A DNA stretch of 46,722 nt, taken from a virus. The notes beneath the pieces are model-generated. The model was not told where the DNA came from and made no database searches. It saw only the letters and a list, made by a program, of their open reading frames with translations. The stretch is taken from the UHGV virus genome UHGV-0200285, one strand, 5' to 3'. The translations under genes were made by a program, and so were the position numbers. Of the stretch, positions 5,838-27,022 are shown piece by piece. The stretch's first letter is position 1; every line of letters begins with the position of its first letter.

Positions 5838-6833
5838 TTACGCCAGTACGCCTATTGCCAGCGCACGATCGATAAAACGAAATATCAGCTCCAGCTGGGA
5901 GCCATACTTCTCTTCAAATGCCACGGTATCCGCATGCAGCTCGTCGTGATGCTTTCTGCACAAAGGCAACACAAAAAGGTCATGCGCTTTTGTACCCATT
6001 CCCCCCTGACCGTGGCCTATCAGGTGGTGGGGATCATCAGCAGGTTTTCCACAACATGCGCACGGCTGCGTCTTAACCCAGCGCGTGTACTTTTCATTAA
6101 CCCAGCGGTGACGTTTTGGGCGTAACATAAAAGACTCCGGCGACTCCGGATCCACTTTCAGCGCCAGCACCTTTTTCGCCTTATCCTGGATGATGCTGGT
6201 GGCAGGAACCGAAGGCACAAGGTCACTTTCCCGGGTAACAGACGGCACAACAGGCTTCGGTAATCTCAGTGCCTTACGGGCTGCACTTTCCGGTAAGGCA
6301 TCCGCCAGATCATTACGAATCAGCCACCAGCACAGTTCCGGCATTGTCACAACATGACTGTCATCAAAACCGAGATCCCGACGCACAACAGACAACACCC
6401 AGCGGGCACAGTTATCCGTTGCCATTGATTCCAGCCGTTCCGTGAACTGATCGCGCAGCTGGTTATCGCAGTGCCAGCACAGACGGATTGCGCCCGGAGC
6501 GTGTCGCATTGTTGTCATATTCTCGCTGTGCCAGTCGGAATGAGGCCACTGGCAGCCTTTTTCACGAAGTAACCAGCTTTCAAGACATTCCACGCCACCA
6601 GCACGACGGATCACTGCCTCATTGCGGAACACGGCCCGAACGGCAGGATCATCCGCCAGCGGTTGTGATGCCGCCGGAACGGCACCACTGGCGAAAGATG
6701 AATAACGTTCCGGCTCAGGCTCCAGCAGGACACGCCCCTGCATAAACAAGGGCATCAGCTCTGAACCTGGTCTGAACAATACGATCCCCATACGCGGGGC
6801 AATTTCAGGGGTCAGTAGTGCTCTCACGGTCAC
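5838..6833 (-). CDS. DUF968-type protein with C-terminal HNH-like Cys/His motif (YdfU-like)
   Basis: 331 aa; C-terminus PCACCGKPADDPHHLIGHG...CRKHHDELH; resembles Qin YdfU from memory. Confidence 0.6.
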   Translation of the reverse strand: MTVRALLTPEIAPRMGIVLFRPGSELMPLFMQGRVLLEPEPERYSSFASGAVPAASQPLADDPAVRAVFRNEAVIRRAGGVECLESWLLREKGCQWPHSDWHSENMTTMRHAPGAIRLCWHCDNQLRDQFTERLESMATDNCARWVLSVVRRDLGFDDSHVVTMPELCWWLIRNDLADALPESAARKALRLPKPVVPSVTRESDLVPSVPATSIIQDKAKKVLALKVDPESPESFMLRPKRHRWVNEKYTRWVKTQPCACCGKPADDPHHLIGHGQGGMGTKAHDLFVLPLCRKHHDELHADTVAFEEKYGSQLELIFRFIDRALAIGVLA

Positions 6834-8531: not shown

Positions 8532-9151
8532 GCCGCCATCTCCCTGACCAGTTTTTCCGCCTGCTGGCGAACCTGCGCCAGAAACGCCTCACCACATGCC
8601 TCAAGTTCATCGCGCCCGATGTAGCTGATTGCCGGTCCCTTCCAGGTCTTGTCGAAAACAGCAATAGCACCAGCGAAGAAAGCGCCTGTCGGCACCTGCT
8701 TCTCATCTTTCGGGATAAACCAGGCAGGCAGTTCAAAACCAATACGCCCGCGAATAAAAGCAATATGATCTGCATCTTCCGGCCACCACACTTCGCTGGT
8801 GGCAGCTTTGATCAGGAAAACATAGCGCCCGCCTTTATCACGCATGCCGGTGATGTATTGCCCCTCATGCTGACTGGCGCGGCTGTATGGGGGATTACCA
8901 AAGGCAGCACCTTTAAGCTCCGCAAGACGTTCTGACCAGTCATGCGCCAGCGCGTTGTCTTCCGCCGTGTAATACGCGGTACATTTGGCGTTATCACCGT
9001 CAGTAAACAGATCCAGGACAAACGGGCCAAACAGGGTGTTAATTCCCCAGAAAATGTTATCCGGCGTGCGCCACTGATCGCCCACTTCCTTCAGTTCATG
9101 GGCTGGTTTGTTCCGCAGCTCCACCAGCTCCTGGCAATATTTATTACTCAT
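8528..9151 (-). CDS. phage DNA N6-adenine methyltransferase (Dam-like)
   Basis: ORF 8528..9184; NPPY catalytic motif (FGNPPYS); ATG at 9151 overlaps upstream stop as TAATG (translational coupling). Confidence 0.75.
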   Translation of the reverse strand: MSNKYCQELVELRNKPAHELKEVGDQWRTPDNIFWGINTLFGPFVLDLFTDGDNAKCTAYYTAEDNALAHDWSERLAELKGAAFGNPPYSRASQHEGQYITGMRDKGGRYVFLIKAATSEVWWPEDADHIAFIRGRIGFELPAWFIPKDEKQVPTGAFFAGAIAVFDKTWKGPAISYIGRDELEACGEAFLAQVRQQAEKLVREMAA

Positions 9152-9639
9152 TAAGCCCCCACGTAATTCCCTGACAGATACCACTCATCACCCGATACAG
9201 CGCGCTTGCTGCTTTTCCGTAAGCACCGCTCACGACGTGCCAGAAAATTGTTTCGTTCTGGCTGGGAGTGGCTTTCACGGAATGCCGCCATCCACACGGT
9301 TGCAGCACGACGGTATAAGCCCCTGGACTCCAGTTCTTCAGCCTGGCGGGTCAGGCACAAAATCACCCGGGGATCGTTAGTGCCGACATAGAAATTGCGC
9401 ACAGGTCTGGTTTCACGAACTGGTTGTGGTTCCGGCTCCTGCGCTCTCTCAGTCAGGCGCGGGAAATGTCTGCGTGTATATCCTTCACAACGGTGAGCCA
9501 CACGCCCACTCTGACGTAACTTGCTTGCAGACTGCAGAACGCGCTGCCGTGAGTAACCTGCAAAAGCATCCGCAATGTCTCCGGAAGTACACCCAGGATG
9601 GGCTTCAATGAATTTCTGAACGTCATTTAACAGACTCAT
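9151..9639 (-). CDS. hypothetical nin-region protein
   Basis: ORF 9151..9645; ATG at 9639 two nt after upstream stop; Arg-rich C-terminal half. Confidence 0.5.
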   Translation of the reverse strand: MSLLNDVQKFIEAHPGCTSGDIADAFAGYSRQRVLQSASKLRQSGRVAHRCEGYTRRHFPRLTERAQEPEPQPVRETRPVRNFYVGTNDPRVILCLTRQAEELESRGLYRRAATVWMAAFRESHSQPERNNFLARRERCLRKSSKRAVSGDEWYLSGNYVGA

Positions 9640-9641
9640 GA

Positions 9642-10460
9642 TCACCCCCTGAATCCTGCCGGGATCTGGCTGTAGTCCACTTTGTCGTAACTGGCTTTGA
9701 AGTACGGGTCCTCGCGTCTGGCTGCAGATACCGCAGGAACTTCCCAGGATTCTTCGAAATGACGATCCGGACCAAAGAACGTGACAGCCTGTTTCACAAA
9801 TTGTGTACCGCTATTGCCCATCGCAGATACCCAGCCCGCGTAGCGATTCACACCTTCCAGCATGGTTTCGGGGTTTACCCCCTCGTTCAAACGGGCTTTC
9901 CAGGCTTTGAAGGCTGCTGATTTTGAATTGCCACCAGCACGTTTGGGATATGCCAGCCATGCCTGCTCAAACTCCGGAGAGTATTCCGGTCGGTTTGAAC
10001 GAACTCGCACAGACTCATCAGCAGATGCACCAACAGCTATTGGTTCATTGACTGATTCTTTGACTGGTTCAAAAGAGTGACTGGTTCTGGGTGAATCTCC
10101 TGCACTACCCCCTGGTGCAACTCCTGCACTACCTGGTGAATTTGCTGCACCAGATAGTGAATTATTTGCACTACCCCCTAGTGAATCTCCTGCACCATCC
10201 AGATGAAGGAGATAGATATTACTTGAGTTACCTTTTTCACCTTTCCGGGTGACTTTTTTTACCAGCCCGGACTCACAAAGGGCCGCAATATGATTCATCA
10301 CAGAACGTTTGCTAATCTCGCACTGGTCAGCAATATGCTGGTAGCTGGGCCAGCACTCACCCTGATCGCTGGCATTATCAGCCAGCTTGATCAGAACCAG
10401 TTTTCGCAATGGATTACCCACTCGAATTTTCATCGCTTTAACCATCAGCTCCATACTCAT
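9642..10460 (-). CDS. replication initiator (N-terminal HTH, Gly/Ser-rich linker, C-terminal domain)
   Basis: 272 aa; N-terminus LRKLVLIKLADNASDQGECWPSYQHIADQCEISKRSVMNHIAALCESGLV (replisome-organiser-type HTH); C-terminal PEFEQAWLAYPKRAGGNSKSAAFKAWKA motif; contains iteron-like DNA repeats. Confidence 0.6.
   Translation of the reverse strand: MSMELMVKAMKIRVGNPLRKLVLIKLADNASDQGECWPSYQHIADQCEISKRSVMNHIAALCESGLVKKVTRKGEKGNSSNIYLLHLDGAGDSLGGSANNSLSGAANSPGSAGVAPGGSAGDSPRTSHSFEPVKESVNEPIAVGASADESVRVRSNRPEYSPEFEQAWLAYPKRAGGNSKSAAFKAWKARLNEGVNPETMLEGVNRYAGWVSAMGNSGTQFVKQAVTFFGPDRHFEESWEVPAVSAARREDPYFKASYDKVDYSQIPAGFRG
10040..10260. repeat. iteron-like direct repeats inside the initiator gene (candidate replication origin)
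   Basis: ~22-bp units starting near 10090, 10114, 10136, 10157, 10181 (e.g. GTGAATCTCCTGCAC perfect at 10091 and 10181); GACTGGTTC repeats at 10063-10087; AT-richer flank 10200-10260. Confidence 0.5.
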
Positions 10461-10693
10461 GCTGCACCTCCGAGATGCTTCATGTTTTTTCCGGAGCGAA
10501 AGGCTATAAGCGGCATACTGACGCGGTAATTACGGCCCAGCGGTTCACAAACCACCTTCTGACATTCACGGTCAACCAGGCTAACACGTAGAACATGCCC
10601 TGCAGGCGTGGTATACCACTGACCAACGGTAGGAATTGATGTTTTTTTACGCTGAAGCAAACGGCAAATATTGAGGATCAACGGATTAAGCAT
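10457..10693 (-). CDS. hypothetical protein
   Basis: 78-aa ORF, 4-nt overlap with downstream initiator gene (operon packing). Confidence 0.35.
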   Translation of the reverse strand: MLNPLILNICRLLQRKKTSIPTVGQWYTTPAGHVLRVSLVDRECQKVVCEPLGRNYRVSMPLIAFRSGKNMKHLGGAA

Positions 10694-10919
10694 GACGATG
10701 CCCTCCGCTGATATTCAGAAGACGGTGAATATGAAAATTAGCCTTACCCGCCAGACGAATACGTTCAGCCTGCAAGTTAAGAAGGGTTTCTACCAGAACC
10801 TGATGCGCCTGCGGATCCGAAAGAGTTACCTTGCGCAGAGCACGTAGTGCAGTTGTTACATAACTGAGTTTATGTAAGTCTTCATCATTCAGACGAGTGA
10901 GGGCTGGGACAGTAGCCAT
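10686..10919 (-). CDS. hypothetical protein
   Basis: 77-aa ORF, tightly packed in the early-right operon. Confidence 0.35.
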   Translation of the reverse strand: MATVPALTRLNDEDLHKLSYVTTALRALRKVTLSDPQAHQVLVETLLNLQAERIRLAGKANFHIHRLLNISGGHRHA

Positions 10920-11497
10920 GATGGCAGCCTCCGATAACAGTGAATTTCGCTGGTGGTGAACTGAACGGGGTTGGCGTAACCGGCGTTATCGGAAACCGGC
11001 GCACCTTTCGGTGCCCCCGTCCAGCCCACCATAATTTGGGTGTGCGCAGACGCAGACGATAAAAAAAACGCTGGCGCGTCATATATCGCCGATAACATTT
11101 CCAGGACGCCAATCCCGGCACCCGCTTTATAAGGTGCCTGAACAGTGTAACGTCCCGGAATGGAAGAATCAATGTGCTGGTGGTCCTTCACACTCAACAA
11201 AATCACGCCTGAATTTCCACAAAGGACTAAAGCACTCATGCGGGTAGTCTTTGCGAAGATAGATAACGCGCTGTGTTTCTGGTTCCCAACGAATAACATG
11301 GACATAAAGCCCTCTTCCGTCACGAAACCAGCGGTTAAGTTCCCGCACAACTCGCCCCCCACAGTCAGGTAAAGTTCTCTGTGGTTACTTACAGCCAGGT
11401 GATTTGGTAATCTGCATTCATGCCGTAACAACAGGTGTTCAGCGACACTGACCACCAGCTGTTGCGACAAACGGTTATTTGCCGTTAAACTGTTCAT
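10889..11497 (-). CDS. hypothetical early protein
   Basis: 202-aa ORF; 4-nt ATGA-type overlap with upstream gene; no family recognised. Confidence 0.45.
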   Translation of the reverse strand: MNSLTANNRLSQQLVVSVAEHLLLRHECRLPNHLAVSNHRELYLTVGGELCGNLTAGFVTEEGFMSMLFVGNQKHSALSIFAKTTRMSALVLCGNSGVILLSVKDHQHIDSSIPGRYTVQAPYKAGAGIGVLEMLSAIYDAPAFFLSSASAHTQIMVGWTGAPKGAPVSDNAGYANPVQFTTSEIHCYRRLPSWLLSQPSLV

Positions 11498-13092: not shown

Positions 13093-13128
13093 TTGACAAT
13101 GTACCCATGAGATACATAATGTATCCAA
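13093..13128 (+). promoter_or_regulatory. candidate pL with operator palindrome
   Basis: TTGACA-N17-CATAAT; overlapping 15-bp perfect inverted repeat GATACAT-A-ATGTATC at 13111-13125. Confidence 0.45.
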
Positions 13129-13721
13129 AAGAAACATGAGGCAGGCAAGATTCAAACAAAATTTGGTTGCAACACGGCGTATGGCACATGCGTCGTTAGC
13201 GGTCTGGGGACGTTAAAGGGGACAATCCACTTCTTGCTCGGGCAAACAAACCAAGTAGCCGGAATGTGCAAGTCAATGATGATGCTGATAAGACGCCTAA
13301 CCAGCGTGGCGATCCGGTTTGACGCCTGGGAAGAGACCAGGGTGCAACGATGAGGGCATTTATGGAGCCGCGACAAAGTGTGGTGCCGTAACTGGCTAAG
13401 TGCTCTCAGTGTTGTGGTAATCCGCGAAATGGCGCGGCGGTAAGTATGGCGGGGTTACTCTTTCCCCGTTGAGGACACCGGATTGTCAGGTTGACCATAC
13501 GCCTGAGTGACAACCCCACCACAACAGCCACTGCTTTGGCGGTACCAGTTTGTACACTTTCTTCCGGCTGGTACCGCTCTTTTTACAAAACAGAGAAGAG
13601 CATCACCGGACGACGGGCTCATAACCCAATCCATCCGGGCGGCTGCCACCGCAGGTGTTCTTCTCTGTTTTGTGGAGAAACCAACCGACCTTGCAGGGTT
13701 GATATGATGAGGAGCAGCAAA

Positions 13722-14149: not shown

Positions 14150-14974
14150 ATGTCTCAGAACTTAGACGCAACCGCAATTAATCAAATCCATGCCCTTATT
14201 TCTGCTCAGGGTGTTAATGAAATTATCAGTAAGATTGGTGCCGATGCTGTGGCATTGCCTGAGAATTTCCGCATTCATGATCTGGAAAAATTTAATTTAA
14301 ATCGCTTCCGTTTCCGTGGTGCGCTTTCCACTGCCAGCATCGATGACTTTACCCGTTATTCTAAAGATCTTGCAGATGAAGGCACCCGCTGCTTTATCGA
14401 TGCTGATAATATGCGTGCCGTCAGTGTACTTAACCTGGGTACTATTGATGAACCAGGTCACGCAGATAACACCGCCACTCTCAAACTGAAAAAGACAGCA
14501 CCGTTCTCTGCCCTGTTGTCTGTTAACGGCGAGCGTAACTCCCAGAAGTCACTGGCAGAATGGATTGAAGACTGGGCCGACTACCTTGTGGGCTTTGATG
14601 CTAATGGTGACGCTATTCAGGCAACAAAAGCGGCTGCGGCAGTCCGTAAAATCACGATTGAAGCAAACCAGACCGCTGATTTTGAAGATAATGACTTCAG
14701 CGGCAAACGCTCCCTGATGGAATCTGTCGAAGCGAAGACCAAAGATATTATGCCAGTGGCATTTGAATTTAAATGCGTTCCGTTTGAAGGCCTGAAAGAA
14801 CGTCCGTTTAAATTACGCCTCAGCATTATCACTGGCGATCGTCCTGTACTGGTTCTGCGCATTATTCAGCTGGAGGCGGTGCAGGAAGAAATGGCTAACG
14901 AATTTCGTGATCTGCTTGTTGAGAAATTCAAAGACAGCAAAGTAGAAACCTTTATTGGTACTTTCACCGCCTGA
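14150..14974 (+). CDS. YfdQ-like protein (DUF2303-type)
   Basis: 274 aa; length and sequence resemble E. coli YfdQ from memory. Confidence 0.55.
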
Positions 14975-15101
14975 TTTCATTACTGCAAATGCCCCTGCGG
15001 GGGCATTTATGGAAACGTAATTAACTCAATAATCACCGGATGGTGAGGGCTTCCTTTTACCCAAACTCAGCGCGGTGCAGCGCATATACGTGGAGAACAA
15101 A

Positions 15102-15638
15102 ATGTCATTTATTAAAACTTTTTCCGGGAAGCATTTTTATTATGACAAGATAAATAAAGACGACATCGTGATTAACGATATCGCGGTTTCCCTTTCAAAT
15201 ATCTGCCGCTTTGCCGGTCATCTTTCTCACTTCTACAGTGTCGCCCAACATGCGGTGCTTTGCAGCCAGCTGGTGCCGCAGGAATTTGCTTTTGAAGCGT
15301 TAATGCATGATGCAACAGAAGCGTATTGCCAGGATATTCCCGCTCCACTGAAACGCCTTCTTCCTGACTATAAACGGATGGAAGAAAAAATTGACGCCGT
15401 AATCCGTGAGAAATACGGGTTACCCCCAGTTATGAGTACGCCCGTGAAATATGCCGATCTTATCATGCTGGCAACCGAACGCCGCGATCTCGGGCTTGAT
15501 GATGGCTCTTTCTGGCCTGTACTGGAAGGCATCCCGGCAACAGAGATGTTCAACGTGATTCCACTGGCACCTAGCCATGCCTACGGGATGTTTATGGAAC
15601 GTTTTAACGAGTTATCGGAGTTACGCAAATGCGCATGA
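15102..15638 (+). CDS. HD-domain phosphohydrolase, YfdR-like 5'-deoxynucleotidase
   Basis: ORF 15075..15638; ATG at 15102 with GGAG RBS gives 178 aa; HD motif context (FAGHLSHFYSVAQHAV ... MHDATEAY). Confidence 0.65.
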   Translation: MSFIKTFSGKHFYYDKINKDDIVINDIAVSLSNICRFAGHLSHFYSVAQHAVLCSQLVPQEFAFEALMHDATEAYCQDIPAPLKRLLPDYKRMEEKIDAVIREKYGLPPVMSTPVKYADLIMLATERRDLGLDDGSFWPVLEGIPATEMFNVIPLAPSHAYGMFMERFNELSELRKCA

Positions 15639-24641: not shown

Positions 24642-27022
24642 TAGATTGACTCCCCCACCTGAGCATCAGTCAATGCCTTGTGCCATATTCTGAAATTCCT
24701 TACATGACCAAATAAATGACGTAACCCGGCTGTAGTCTGGCCTCCAATACGGATAATTGCGGTGTTCTGAATACAGGACCATGTGGTTTTTGTTTCGCTG
24801 GATATACGCCCGTTACTTACTGCGCATGTAGACTGATCAGACTTTACACGCATCCCCATAACCATTTTTTCAAGTGATGCATTTTCGTTTATCCGTCTGT
24901 TAGACCCACCAATATCGCAATAAGGAAATCCGTCGTAATCTGCTGAAGAACCGAAGCCAAGAATAATAGCCGCTCCGGTTTGATGACCGCCGGTATCAAA
25001 AACACGCGGTGCTGCATTTGGCGTTTTATACCAGTTCTTATGTACCTCACAAAGAACCGTAAAAGGAAGATTATAAAGATTATTCTTAATGGGAACTGTG
25101 ACTATATCGCTTGCGCGGGTCGCCGCCGTCGTTCCTGATATAATAAAAGATGATACACAAGGCCCATTTTCTACTTGTGGGGTGGCCAGATAAATATAGT
25201 CACCAGATACGGTTGCCCCGCCCTGCTTAGGAGAATACTGTATCTGAGAACCTATTTTTAACTCCCCATCAATTGCCTGAATTGTTGCCTCTGCAAAAAT
25301 CCATCCGATAACTTCGTCCTTTCTGACTCTCGCTGTAATCCTTGAGGCAGCGCCGCCTGTCATATTAATTTCAAGCGTTTGTGTATCAATATACACATCA
25401 CCAAGAAAAGTTGTTGCGCTACCGTCATATTTATCAAATCGGATACGCAACCTTACCTGCAGTTCTGTTTTAAAACGACATGAGGTTGTCACGTATTTAT
25501 TATCGTCTGAGACATCAACTGACTTTGTTGCAGCAATTGATGCCATATTAATGGCTGAGGTTTGCCCAATCAGAGAATCGTTACAGACAAACTTTCCATA
25601 GGTAAAACCAAAACTATCCGTCCCGGTTTCGGGAACATCCATATTTGACGATCGCCCCCAACTGGCAGGGCTTTCCGAATTGAGCATGTAGTTCGTTCTT
25701 TGCCCCTCAATAAGCAGGCCATCACGTTCAAACCGTGGCTCGTCAATGGCAGCCTCTGTCAGCACACCAGATTTATTAATATAGGTTGCTTTCGATGCGC
25801 GTTTAAACTTAACAACCTTGTCGCCAGGCATCGTTATTTCATCATCACCAATAACAATCTTTTTATATGACGGCGAAAAGCCCGTAATCATATCCAGCGA
25901 ATCGTTAAATGGTATCCACACATCAGGCAGCGGCTGTAAGACATATTTATACGGCTCCGCAGCCTGGCTTGCGTACTCTCTGGCTGCATCTTCGCTTGCT
26001 TTAGCTGCCGTCTGGCTTGCTGCCGATGCTTTCGCTGAGTTCGCAGCCGCTGTTTCGCTCACCTTTGCGTTGGTTTCACTGGTTTTTGCTGCTTTTTGAC
26101 TGTTAGCTGATGCAGTGGCAGAAGCAGCAGCCGCGCTTGCAGAACCAGCTGCAGCACTCTCGCTTTCGGCTGCTGCATCCTGACTGCTTTTCGCCGCAGT
26201 TTCGCTGGCTTTGGCATTCGTTTCGCTGGTCTTCGCTGCCGTCTGGCTGGACTTTGCGTTAGTTTCACTCGTCTTCGCTGCTTTCTGACTGTTAGCCGCA
26301 GCAGTTGCTGATCCAGCAGCTGAAGTCGCAGAACCGGCTGCCGCGCTCTCGCTTTCGGCTGCTGCATCCTGACTGCTTTTCGCCGCAGTTTCACTGGCTT
26401 TGGCATTCGTTTCGCTGGTTTTCGCTGCCGTCTGGCTGGACTTTGCGTTGGTTTCGCTCGTCTTTGCGGCTGTCTCGCTATTTTTCGCGTTGGTTTCTGA
26501 TTTTTTGGCTGCTGTCGCGGAGTTTTCTGATGCAGTCTGTGAGGTCGCTGCCGCCTGTGCACTATTAGCTGCATTCGTTTCTGAGGTTTTCGCCGCGTTC
26601 TTCGATGATGCCGCTGCAGTTTCGGATTTCTTTGCCGCCGCTGCGCTCTGAGAGGCGGCTTCGGCGTTGCGTGCCGCTTCTTCCACCATTTCCTCAAAAC
26701 GACGCAATGCCTCCGGCATGACATCATCTTCCGTCATGGCACCGAGAAAATCATTCAGCGTACCTGGTCTGGAACCTTCATAGACGGTAATGGTTCCGGC
26801 ATGTGAAGGCGGAAAACCTTCAACAAGCAGGATAACGCTGTACTGGCCATACTCAACATCCATGCTGTAACGCCCGGCTTCATCCGGATTTTCAGAGGCC
26901 ACCGTGTTCACCAGTACCGTGGTGCTGTTACGCTTTGCCTTCAGTTGAATAGTGCAGTTCTGTATTGGTTTTCCCGCACCATCTTTCAGCACACCTGAGA
27001 TTTTTACTGCTGCCATATCCAC
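24641..27022 (-). CDS. stf: side tail fibre protein Stf-like with internal tandem repeats
   Basis: 793 aa; lambda Stf-like N-terminus (MAAVKISGVLKDGAGKPIQNCTIQLKA); long Ala/Ser/Thr/Lys repeat region; distinct C-terminal domain. Confidence 0.75.
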   Translation of the reverse strand: MDMAAVKISGVLKDGAGKPIQNCTIQLKAKRNSTTVLVNTVASENPDEAGRYSMDVEYGQYSVILLVEGFPPSHAGTITVYEGSRPGTLNDFLGAMTEDDVMPEALRRFEEMVEEAARNAEAASQSAAAAKKSETAAASSKNAAKTSETNAANSAQAAATSQTASENSATAAKKSETNAKNSETAAKTSETNAKSSQTAAKTSETNAKASETAAKSSQDAAAESESAAAGSATSAAGSATAAANSQKAAKTSETNAKSSQTAAKTSETNAKASETAAKSSQDAAAESESAAAGSASAAAASATASANSQKAAKTSETNAKVSETAAANSAKASAASQTAAKASEDAAREYASQAAEPYKYVLQPLPDVWIPFNDSLDMITGFSPSYKKIVIGDDEITMPGDKVVKFKRASKATYINKSGVLTEAAIDEPRFERDGLLIEGQRTNYMLNSESPASWGRSSNMDVPETGTDSFGFTYGKFVCNDSLIGQTSAINMASIAATKSVDVSDDNKYVTTSCRFKTELQVRLRIRFDKYDGSATTFLGDVYIDTQTLEINMTGGAASRITARVRKDEVIGWIFAEATIQAIDGELKIGSQIQYSPKQGGATVSGDYIYLATPQVENGPCVSSFIISGTTAATRASDIVTVPIKNNLYNLPFTVLCEVHKNWYKTPNAAPRVFDTGGHQTGAAIILGFGSSADYDGFPYCDIGGSNRRINENASLEKMVMGMRVKSDQSTCAVSNGRISSETKTTWSCIQNTAIIRIGGQTTAGLRHLFGHVRNFRIWHKALTDAQVGESI
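26040..26480. repeat. tandem ~189-bp direct repeat (about 2.2 copies) inside stf
   Basis: CTCGCTTTCGGCTGCTGCATCC recurs at 26158 and 26347; encodes repeated ~63-aa segment. Confidence 0.7.

Follow-up and report, generated by a model that had tools for sequence, protein, structure and literature searches.

A putative lambda-type replication origin inside the gene for an HTH_36 initiator in a temperate phage that encodes no helicase loader

Where does a temperate phage begin to replicate its DNA when it encodes a replication initiator and no protein to load a helicase? Virus genome UHGV-0200285, whose full 46,722 nucleotides (nt) are called the window here, raises this question at 9642..10460 on the minus strand. 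The open reading frame (ORF) list, Pfam, PHROG, and an AlphaFold model identify a replication initiator gene of 272 amino acids (aa) at this locus, and an initial annotation of the sequence had likened repeats inside the gene to the lambda origin inside gene O. We propose that positions 10041-10195, in the linker-coding part of this initiator gene, are in all likelihood the vegetative replication origin of the phage. As judged from sequence comparison, this is a putative lambda-type origin in an initiator family that is unrelated to lambda O, that is widespread in Gammaproteobacteria, and that here has no phage-encoded loader.

The initial annotation had counted five direct repeats at the locus, and the count holds. 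On the plus strand, 15-base pair (bp) cores recur with start-to-start spacings of 24, 21, 21, and 24 bp, and Tandem Repeats Finder reports them as a single array at 10091-10195 (period 24, 4.6 copies), or at offset 265-370 of the 819 nt of the gene. Read on the coding strand, the cores of these iterons are imperfect palindromes with a variable center, GTGCA-N5-T[T/G]CAC. In gene order, they are GTGCAGGAGATTCAC (iteron 1, 10181..10195), GTGCAAATAATTCAC (iteron 2, 10157..10171), GTGCAGCAAATTCAC (iteron 3, 10136..10150), GTGCAGGAGTTGCAC (iteron 4, 10115..10129, a perfect GTGCA/TGCAC palindrome), and again GTGCAGGAGATTCAC (iteron 5, 10091..10105), the last of which abuts a conserved element described below. 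The iteron pattern GTGMANNNNNTKCAC has five matches in the 46.7-kb window, all of them in the array, against 0.31 expected from shuffles; this expectation is post hoc for the window, and the pattern was validated independently in other loci. The two longer, 24-bp spacings are those that contain a run of five G residues on the coding strand, namely, the spacer before the last iteron (10106..10114, with C5 at 10108-10112 on the plus strand) and a second G5 spacer at 10172-10180.

A tandem-repeat scan found no other iteron-like array in the window. The remaining tandem arrays are a two-copy 20-mer at 13098-13137 and tail-fiber coding repeats at 26063-26497. The latter repeat every 189, 42, or 21 bp, each a multiple of 3, and lie within a 793-aa tail-fiber-like ORF (24641-27022); they are ordinary protein-level repeats and provide a useful contrast to the iterons. 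A search of Rfam over the iteron repeats yielded no RNA family, the weak match to mir-875 (22 bits, E value of 0.23) being noise. There is no DnaA box near the initiator locus either: the nearest consensus lies at 6045, 3.6 kb off, and the count for the window equals chance.

Are these repeats constrained as DNA or as protein? Using the initiator protein as the query, 56 loci from different species were fetched. Comparison with related initiators, which the initial annotation had suggested as a check, places the array at the same position in 54 loci from different species. For instance, the exact class pattern (classes are defined below) has 97 matches in 23 of the 56 species loci, all at nt 265-430 of the homologous ORF, and no match in the approximately 6 kb of flanking DNA per locus. 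When the linker region was read in all species loci, each was found to have three to six repeats at the same place. Adjacent units of class A, to which the repeats with GTGCA half-sites belong, are 21, 22, 23, and 24 bp apart in 30, 6, 12, and 22 cases, respectively (n = 70). In 18 of the 70 cases, the spacing is 22 or 23 bp and hence not a multiple of 3; successive units then fall into different reading frames, which is impossible for a protein repeat. The units of the window have in common the pattern xGT GCA xxx xxT TCA Cxx, in which the half-sites keep their third codon positions constant, variation is seen at first and second positions, and Gly/Ser and Asp/Asn/Val alternate in the protein.

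Further evidence comes from the spacer and from copy number. Of 54 loci, 41 have G5 or C5 in the last spacer and another 9 have G4 or C4, the run occurring in either orientation; it is a strand-symmetric DNA feature that codes for Gly-Gly or Pro-Pro. Near-identical alleles from Escherichia coli and phages have 1, 2, 5, 7, 8, or 9 iteron units, and the complete cdtI phage genome record has eight, which arose from a 66-bp duplication. Also, the initial annotation had placed the repeats in the linker-coding region of the initiator, and this is where they fall: residues 91-157, encoded exactly by the iterons and the neighboring 10-mers, are predicted by AlphaFold to be disordered, with a predicted local distance difference test (pLDDT) score of about 30, and a disordered linker imposes little constraint on the protein. 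These comparisons indicate that the repeats are constrained as DNA and not as protein.

A further comparison is between the iterons and the protein that is predicted to read them. Five iteron classes occur among the 54 loci, and the single-base differences that distinguish their half-sites are mirrored in both arms of the palindrome. Class A (24 loci) has GTGCA-N5-TGCAC, including a GTGAA/TTCAC subclass, and is accompanied by a helix that resembles S[KR]RSVMNHI ([KR]RS[VA]M/I). Class B (9 loci) pairs GGGCA-N5-TGCCC with xRSTVKxH[VI]R, class C (8 loci) pairs GTAGGC...GCAC with DRSTVR[KR]HIK, and class D (11 loci) pairs GTGCC-N7-GGCAC with x[KH]SxVRxHI. Class E, GTGAC-N5-GTCAC with ..MRHI.., comprises two loci, one from an Erwinia genome and one from a Vibrio phage, that are about 50% identical to each other. 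In the 54 loci, residues 49-60, which cover the beginning of the predicted recognition helix, correspond exactly to iteron class, and the classes cross host genera, with A, B, and C in Pseudomonas, A and D in Shewanella, and A, B, and E in enteric bacteria. In an independent set of 111 loci from IMG/VR, the pairing of class and helix recurs with 32 distinct helix variants, and a sixth class, GTGTA-N5-TACAC, is added. Such covariation is the signature expected for the binding sites of a dimeric winged-helix protein, and it provides strong, indirect support for the idea that the N-terminal domain binds the iterons.

The initiator itself consists of an N-terminal winged helix, the disordered linker, and a C-terminal domain that belongs to no Pfam family. 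Its N terminus matches Pfam HTH_36 (E value of 1.8e-11), and PHROG 270, "replication initiation protein," is the match for the protein as a whole (E value of 5e-88). The winged-helix DNA-binding domain (aa 1-88; 10197..10460, minus strand), delimited by the AlphaFold model and an alignment, is modeled with 10-residue block means of pLDDT between 68 and 92; helices span aa 3-11, 17-29, 40-47, and 51-64, and the wing strands span aa 67-73 and 79-85. The predicted recognition helix is aa 51-64, KRSVMNHIAALCES (10269..10310, minus strand), as evidenced by the model together with the class-specific motifs at aa 49-60. By comparison, aa 1-48 are nearly invariant across the family in an alignment of 52 sequences (the window and 51 species loci). 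A small helical domain begins at about aa 160, with helices at aa 162-214 modeled at moderate confidence. Foldseek comparison of the model with PDB returned generic winged-helix matches to the N-terminal domain, including DnaD-N, RepA_N, and the Orc1 winged helix, all with E values above 0.01, and NCBIfam assigned no family to the initiator. Some homologs carry a DnaD-like or primosomal name in databases, an identity that the window protein does not share: DnaD_N scores 24.3 bits against a Pfam cutoff of 27, the C-terminal domain has no Pfam match, and in the fold search the DnaD N-terminal domain is merely one among many generic winged helices.

What lies beside the iterons is conserved to a greater depth than the iterons themselves. 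Directly 3' of the last iteron, all 54 loci, and hence all iteron classes, have an element of about 40 bp, CCAGAACCAGTCACTCTTTTGAACCAGTCAATGAACC or a close variant thereof. In the window, this family-wide conserved element is CCAGAACCAGTCACTCTTTTGAACCAGTCAAAGAATCAGTCAATGAACC on the coding strand (10041..10090), which we propose as the region of unwinding or helicase entry. It contains GAAYC four times, with spacings of 17, 12, and 12 bp. The initial annotation had noticed a second set of short repeats here, and the set is real: the three copies of GAAYCAGTCA at 10049-10087 are its only matches in the window, against 0.22 expected from shuffles. TGACTGGTTC occurs exactly at 10061-10070 and at 10078-10087, TGACTGATTC occurs at 10049-10058, and a further GAACC on the coding strand (GGTTC on the plus strand), the fourth, is found at 10042-10046. 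Because the two exact 10-mers are 17 bp apart, they are read in two frames, as R-T-S-H and as E-P-V-K.

Several lines of evidence indicate that the element is conserved as DNA. Among 45 ungapped sequences, its information content at codon positions 1, 2, and 3 is 1.59, 1.78, and 1.64 bits, compared with 1.43, 1.60, and 0.65 bits in the N-terminal domain, where third positions of codons 49-72 have 0.33 bits. Conserved third positions in the element, set against near-random ones in the N-terminal domain, point to conservation at the DNA level rather than to recent common descent. In four loci with intact genes (L038, L045, L049, and L050), the first 10-mer is translated as EPVT (HPEPVT) instead of RTSH (PRTSHS), with the DNA kept. 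In IMG/VR, the element occurs once per contig, and it follows the iteron array in this gene in 114 of the 114 cases with enough upstream sequence (the array was seen by regular expression in 111 and by inspection in 3). Distant relatives keep only the periodic GAACC/AACCxTCA core of the DNA and not the peptide. For instance, Pseudomonas phage MD8 has AGAACC four times at approximately 12-bp spacing and reads PRTVIEPTREPSGEP, and a Piscirickettsia plasmid copy, in which the gene is a pseudogene, reads TAACCATCACTCTAACCGTCA. By these comparisons, the GAACC-repeat element is conserved across many bacterial orders, and it stays unchanged next to iterons and recognition helices that have diverged to give five or six classes of specificity at the least.

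The element also travels with the N-terminal module. It accompanies this module whatever the C-terminal domain is, and it is absent from the Stx1_699 initiator, which has the C-terminal domain alone in common. Natural recombinants exist in which class B or D N-terminal modules continue, immediately past the element, into a C-terminal domain that closely matches that of the window (the E. coli-type proteins P0068, P0069, and P0072). In Stx2a_F403 (L138), the N-terminal module is joined after the element to a different C-terminal domain, which is followed by an intein-containing Toprim protein. Since these recombinants are joined at the element, it also marks a joint for module exchange. More tentatively, the element may be more than easily melted DNA, namely, a sequence-specific site that is recognized, as duplex or as single strand, either by a host factor that is conserved across the Gammaproteobacteria or by the invariant aa 1-48 of the initiator. 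This possibility, to which we give less than even weight, would let a one-protein phage replicon open its DNA and load host DnaB-DnaC without a phage loader. Separately, the origin of P22 (L142, approximately 1440-1452) contains GAATCAGTCA, the same 10-mer as the third copy in the window, at the boundary between its iterons and A-rich tract; the initiator of P22 is unrelated, and the match may be a coincidence.

Which flank of the iterons would unwind? The initial annotation had described an AT-richer flank, and both sides qualify, with 38 to 40% GC at 10180-10270 and 42% at 10030-10089, against approximately 50% locally. The family-wide candidate is the promoter-distal GAACCAGTCA element, on the same side as in lambda. 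It is a consistent minimum of duplex stability (mean z of about +1.5 in 48 loci) and adjoins the stable last iteron and the G5/C5 spacer. The least stable 30-bp patch of this phage (10205..10240), on the promoter-proximal side of the iterons, is an alternative unwinding site; at approximately 10220, its nearest-neighbor stability is -1.15 kcal/mol per step, compared with a mean of -1.42 (standard deviation, 0.09). We rank this patch second because GC-rich relatives do not share its AT-richness. Within the AT-rich patch just upstream of the iterons (10237-10262, plus strand, antisense to the initiator gene), the sequence TCACCTTTCCGGGTGA could form a terminator-like hairpin and precedes T7; the number of such matches in the region is within chance.

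The resemblance to lambda, which the initial annotation had proposed, is one of architecture and not of descent. In lambdoid phages, O-binding iterons and an AT-rich tract lie in the middle of gene O, and extra iterons add residues to the linker of the protein (PMC7466680). Synonymous mutations in these iterons abolish replication, and O also binds single-stranded AT-rich DNA (PMC7466680). Work on phage L indicates that distantly related initiators each bind different iterons inside their own coding regions (PMC8022706). The lambda record has iterons at gene O offset 348-432, followed by an A-rich tract, and the P22 record has its rep_origin at gene 18 offset 352-496. Like the origins of lambda and of the Stx phages 933W and P27, the window locus places its candidate origin mid-gene, where the linker is encoded that connects the DNA-binding domain at the N terminus with the recruitment domain (here a presumed one) at the C terminus. 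It shares with them the four to six dyad-symmetric iterons about two helical turns apart, changes in copy number that alter linker length, and a position in the early-right operon after cro and cII. In lambda and P22, an AT-rich region follows the iterons in the direction of transcription, on the promoter-distal side; the window has its candidate counterpart, the conserved and moderately AT-rich element, on that side, and its own stability minimum on the other. The window differs in having HTH_36 rather than Phage_rep_O, a different iteron sequence, a GAACC flank of about 42% GC rather than an A-rich tract, and neither P nor another loader. BLASTP of the initiator against lambda O and P22 gp18 gave no meaningful match (best E value of 0.036 over 22 residues), and the protein is not a member of the lambda O/P22 gp18 family, to which it has no homology and whose cognate loader or helicase gene is missing directly downstream.

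Comparison with P22 is instructive for the flank too. P22 and, putatively, phage L have their own iterons in the coding region of the initiator gene 18, as the window has (offset 265-420 for the whole candidate origin). Lambda and P22 have a common tract, ACACAAAAGACA.TAT.ACAAAAGA, after iterons that differ, which is a precedent for variable iterons beside a conserved flank, as in the window family. P22 gp18 belongs to the lambda O family and is followed by the phage's own DnaB-type helicase, gp12, whereas the window initiator is unrelated and has no helicase gene.

Iteron plasmids offer a further parallel. The winged-helix initiators of such plasmids (RK2 TrfA, F RepE, pPS10 RepA, and R6K pi) bind direct-repeat iterons beside an unwinding element with short repeats, and some plasmid Rep proteins bring in host DnaB by direct contact and, once the element is open, bind to one of its strands. 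In these plasmids the iterons are not within rep but outside it, and DnaA boxes are usually part of the origin. The window module does not qualify as an iteron plasmid replicon (Rep_3/RepA): no Rep_3/RepA match was found, the iterons are inside the gene, and no DnaA box occurs within 3.6 kb. In PLSDB, the module is found in 37 of 72,556 plasmid records, mostly phage-like circles of approximately 40 kb, and it is essentially confined to phages and prophages.

If this is an origin, then how is the helicase supplied? The initial annotation had seen no helicase-loader gene nearby and had suggested reliance on host factors; such a gene is indeed missing from the window and from close relatives with complete genomes. 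Among the 54 loci, genes downstream of the initiator encode lambda P-like (14 loci), IstB/DnaC-like (14 loci), DnaB-like (15 loci), and Toprim (2 loci) proteins, with loaders immediately after the initiator and helicases second. The window contains no homolog of P, IstB/DnaC, DnaB, or Toprim, and Pfam scans of the larger ORFs in the early region revealed no helicase, loader, or primase domain. Similarly, the complete phage phiSTEC1575-Stx2k, whose initiator gene is 98.8% identical, has 83 annotated features, none of which is a helicase, loader, or primase. The place that the loader gene takes in relatives is occupied in the window by a gene for a PerC-family (YfdN-like) regulator (9151..9645, minus strand; Pfam PerC E value of 1.9e-9; RefSeq name yfdN), the start of which overlaps the initiator stop codon. 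The C-terminal domain of the initiator (aa 158-272; 9642..9989, minus strand) is the presumed host-interaction module. A C-terminal domain of the window type was found in eight other contexts: five have a DnaC-like gene, none has a lambda P-like gene, and three have nothing. In the five (L002, L004, L005, L006, and Stx1_699; 40 to 73% identity), a DnaB-like gene is present as well, except in L006. When the C-terminal domain by itself was used to search proteins, the matches were for the most part truncated fragments and gave no useful information. From these neighborhoods, we infer that the C-terminal domain engages a DnaC-type loader or DnaB, which in this phage would be the host proteins.

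Taken together, the anatomy of the locus suggests a mechanism. Dimers of the N-terminal winged-helix domain would use the recognition helix at aa 51-64 to bind to the five palindromic iterons of 15 bp. Because the iterons are about two helical turns apart, the bound dimers would lie on one face of the DNA, and we propose that they form a nucleoprotein complex that resembles the lambda O-some. Strain in this complex would be relieved in the adjacent, promoter-distal GAACC-repeat element of lower stability at 10041-10090. The C-terminal domain would then bring in the host DnaB helicase, most likely as a DnaB-DnaC complex, which we propose because none of the three proteins (loader, helicase, and primase) is encoded by the phage.

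Other explanations for the repeats deserve consideration. The initial annotation had itself raised the possibility that they are owed to protein-level constraint alone, that is, that they are a by-product of a low-complexity Gly/Ser/Ala/Pro linker, shaped by protein selection or slippage and without any cis-acting function in DNA. Each of the four spacings in the window is divisible by 3, the units code for similar hepta- or octapeptides (G-[AS]-[AG]-x-[DNV]-S-[LP]), and a disordered linker tolerates one to nine units, all of which would suit this explanation. We nevertheless regard it as highly improbable, given that relatives have units in different frames at 22- or 23-bp spacings, that third codon positions of the half-sites are invariant while amino acids change, that the G5/C5 spacer flips strand and thereby exchanges Gly-Gly for Pro-Pro, and that the palindrome arms change together and track the recognition helix. 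Alternatively, the palindromes may be operators through which the initiator represses itself or attenuates its operon, or may serve incompatibility or copy control, with replication starting elsewhere. Dimeric winged-helix proteins on palindromes inside an operon are a typical arrangement for a repressor, and plasmid iterons also mediate autoregulation and handcuffing. This explanation seems quite unlikely: it has to contend with the lack of another iteron-like array in the window, with the constant coupling of the array to a conserved element of low stability, and with the position of the array directly upstream of loader and helicase genes in relatives. Moreover, the architecture matches the experimentally defined origins of lambda and P22 (PMC7466680; PMC8022706).

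The conserved element invites a separate doubt, namely, that it is not a site of unwinding but instead codes for a peptide motif, PRTSHSFEPVNEP, that docks to a host protein, or acts as a patch of homology for the exchange of N- and C-terminal modules. Indeed, the PRTSHSFEPVNEP peptide is nearly invariant in most loci, and the element sits exactly at the junction of the N-terminal module with several unrelated C-terminal domains, as the recombinants P0068, P0069, and P0072 exemplify. The four loci that read the first copy in another frame and retain the DNA, the equal conservation of third codon positions with first and second positions, and the distant relatives (phage MD8 and the Piscirickettsia plasmid pseudogene) that keep the DNA core and not the peptide make this explanation unlikely in our view; serving as a joint for recombination does not conflict with a function in cis and is probably a consequence of it. 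Against our proposal of an origin at 10041-10195, several observations should be weighed. The conserved element is only moderately AT-rich, at about 42% GC, and far less so than the tract in lambda, and the stability minimum of this window, at approximately 10220, lies on the opposite side of the iterons from it. The C-terminal domain has no Pfam, PDB-sequence profile, or fold match, and its role in recruiting a helicase is argued from gene neighborhood. Some class B and D loci were assigned to their classes by eye, and their right half-sites are degenerate. The PLSDB records are phage-sized, so they include no small plasmid that would exemplify a self-sufficient replicon. Finally, the iterons could also, or instead, serve autoregulation.

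How much of this has been described before? The initiator gene is 98 to 99% identical in DNA to SfV orf39, mEp460 gp43, phiSTEC1575-Stx2k gp23, and the genes of cdtI and Stx2a_WGPS2. Fagerlund et al. classed the window-type module as Eru6 and its Stx2a_F403 relative as Eru5 on the basis of gene content, and they state that nothing is known of the replication proteins of Eru phages (PMC8951638). The Eru6 reference phage, Stx2a_WGPS2, has a gene that is 98.2% identical in DNA to that of the window, and in the Eru5 reference phage, Stx2a_F403, the same N-terminal module is found with class B iterons and with the flanking element seen in the window. The text of Fagerlund et al. mentions neither iterons nor a replication origin (PMC8951638), and iterons are not mentioned by Llarena et al. 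either. The GenBank records of SfV and cdtI have no annotated origin feature, unlike those of lambda and P22, and the iteron and 10-mer strings retrieve only unrelated primers from the searchable literature. We therefore found no published description or database annotation of this origin, although the SfV genome paper, which was outside the search, might mention the repeats.

The module is common: the initiator gene is present at 80% coverage or more in 897 of 5,426 complete E. coli genomes. As we read the locus, this module would drive the replication of SfV-like serotype-converting phages, the cdtI phage, and Eru5- and Eru6-type Stx2 phages, and replication of Stx phages sets toxin gene dosage. 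Locating the origin yields testable targets in the iterons, the flanking element, and the recognition helix. Of particular interest are the matched series of recognition helices and half-sites, which may represent a naturally occurring code for recognition by a winged-helix initiator, and the GAACC-repeat element, whose conservation is deep and independent of reading frame. Along with the conserved flank, the initiator-iteron series could show how an initiator without a loader recruits the host helicase.

The surroundings of the locus merit description as well. The initiator gene belongs to the early-right operon, with cI, a Cro-like gene, and a CII-like gene upstream. A promoter scan of 9500-10700 found no sigma-70-like site and two terminator-like matches that are within chance. 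Downstream, the initiator and PerC-family genes overlap by ATGA, such that a single-base indel or sequencing error would yield a fusion like P0026, a 436-aa protein in one NCBI genome in which the initiator is fused to the downstream PerC/YfdN-like protein.

Between the CII-like gene and the initiator, Rfam identified a C4 antisense RNA (10949-11036, minus strand; 82.8 bits, E value of 7e-16) and an isrK small RNA (11061-11137, minus strand; 61.7 bits, E value of 6e-12). Both lie inside a mechanically called 202-aa "Ash" ORF (10889-11497), and the region looks like an immI module of the P1/P7 type (isrK, C4, and antirepressor). In this respect the window differs from the Eru phages, since the gene next to its initiator cluster is the Ash-domain ORF that overlaps the isrK and C4 RNAs and not a full Rha gene; mEp460 has a 1,152-bp Rha gene at the position of the Ash ORF.

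Elsewhere in the family, a tyrosine integrase gene lies about 1 to 2 kb after the initiator in 12 loci, mostly from Shewanella and Parashewanella (L013, L022, L025, L029, L033, L038, L042, L045, L046, and L048-L050), and all but one of the 12 have a loader gene, P-like or DnaC-like, between the two. This arrangement suggests compact integrative elements or satellites built on this replicon. On the plus strand, the window itself encodes a homolog of YfdQ (DUF2303) at 14150-14974 and a YfbR/YfdR-like HD-domain protein at 15075-15638. YfdR is reported to bind DnaA, overexpression of yfdQRST is reported to block initiation at oriC, and homologs in SfV have been noted (PMC4776307); the YfdQ and YfdR homologs may be relevant to a phage that needs host DnaB-DnaC. 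Farther along, a protein of 646 aa that begins with a DUF4365 domain and contains many TPR repeats (16835-18775, plus strand) is encoded next to the integrase gene (18938-20173, minus strand) and is probably an accessory or defense gene product.

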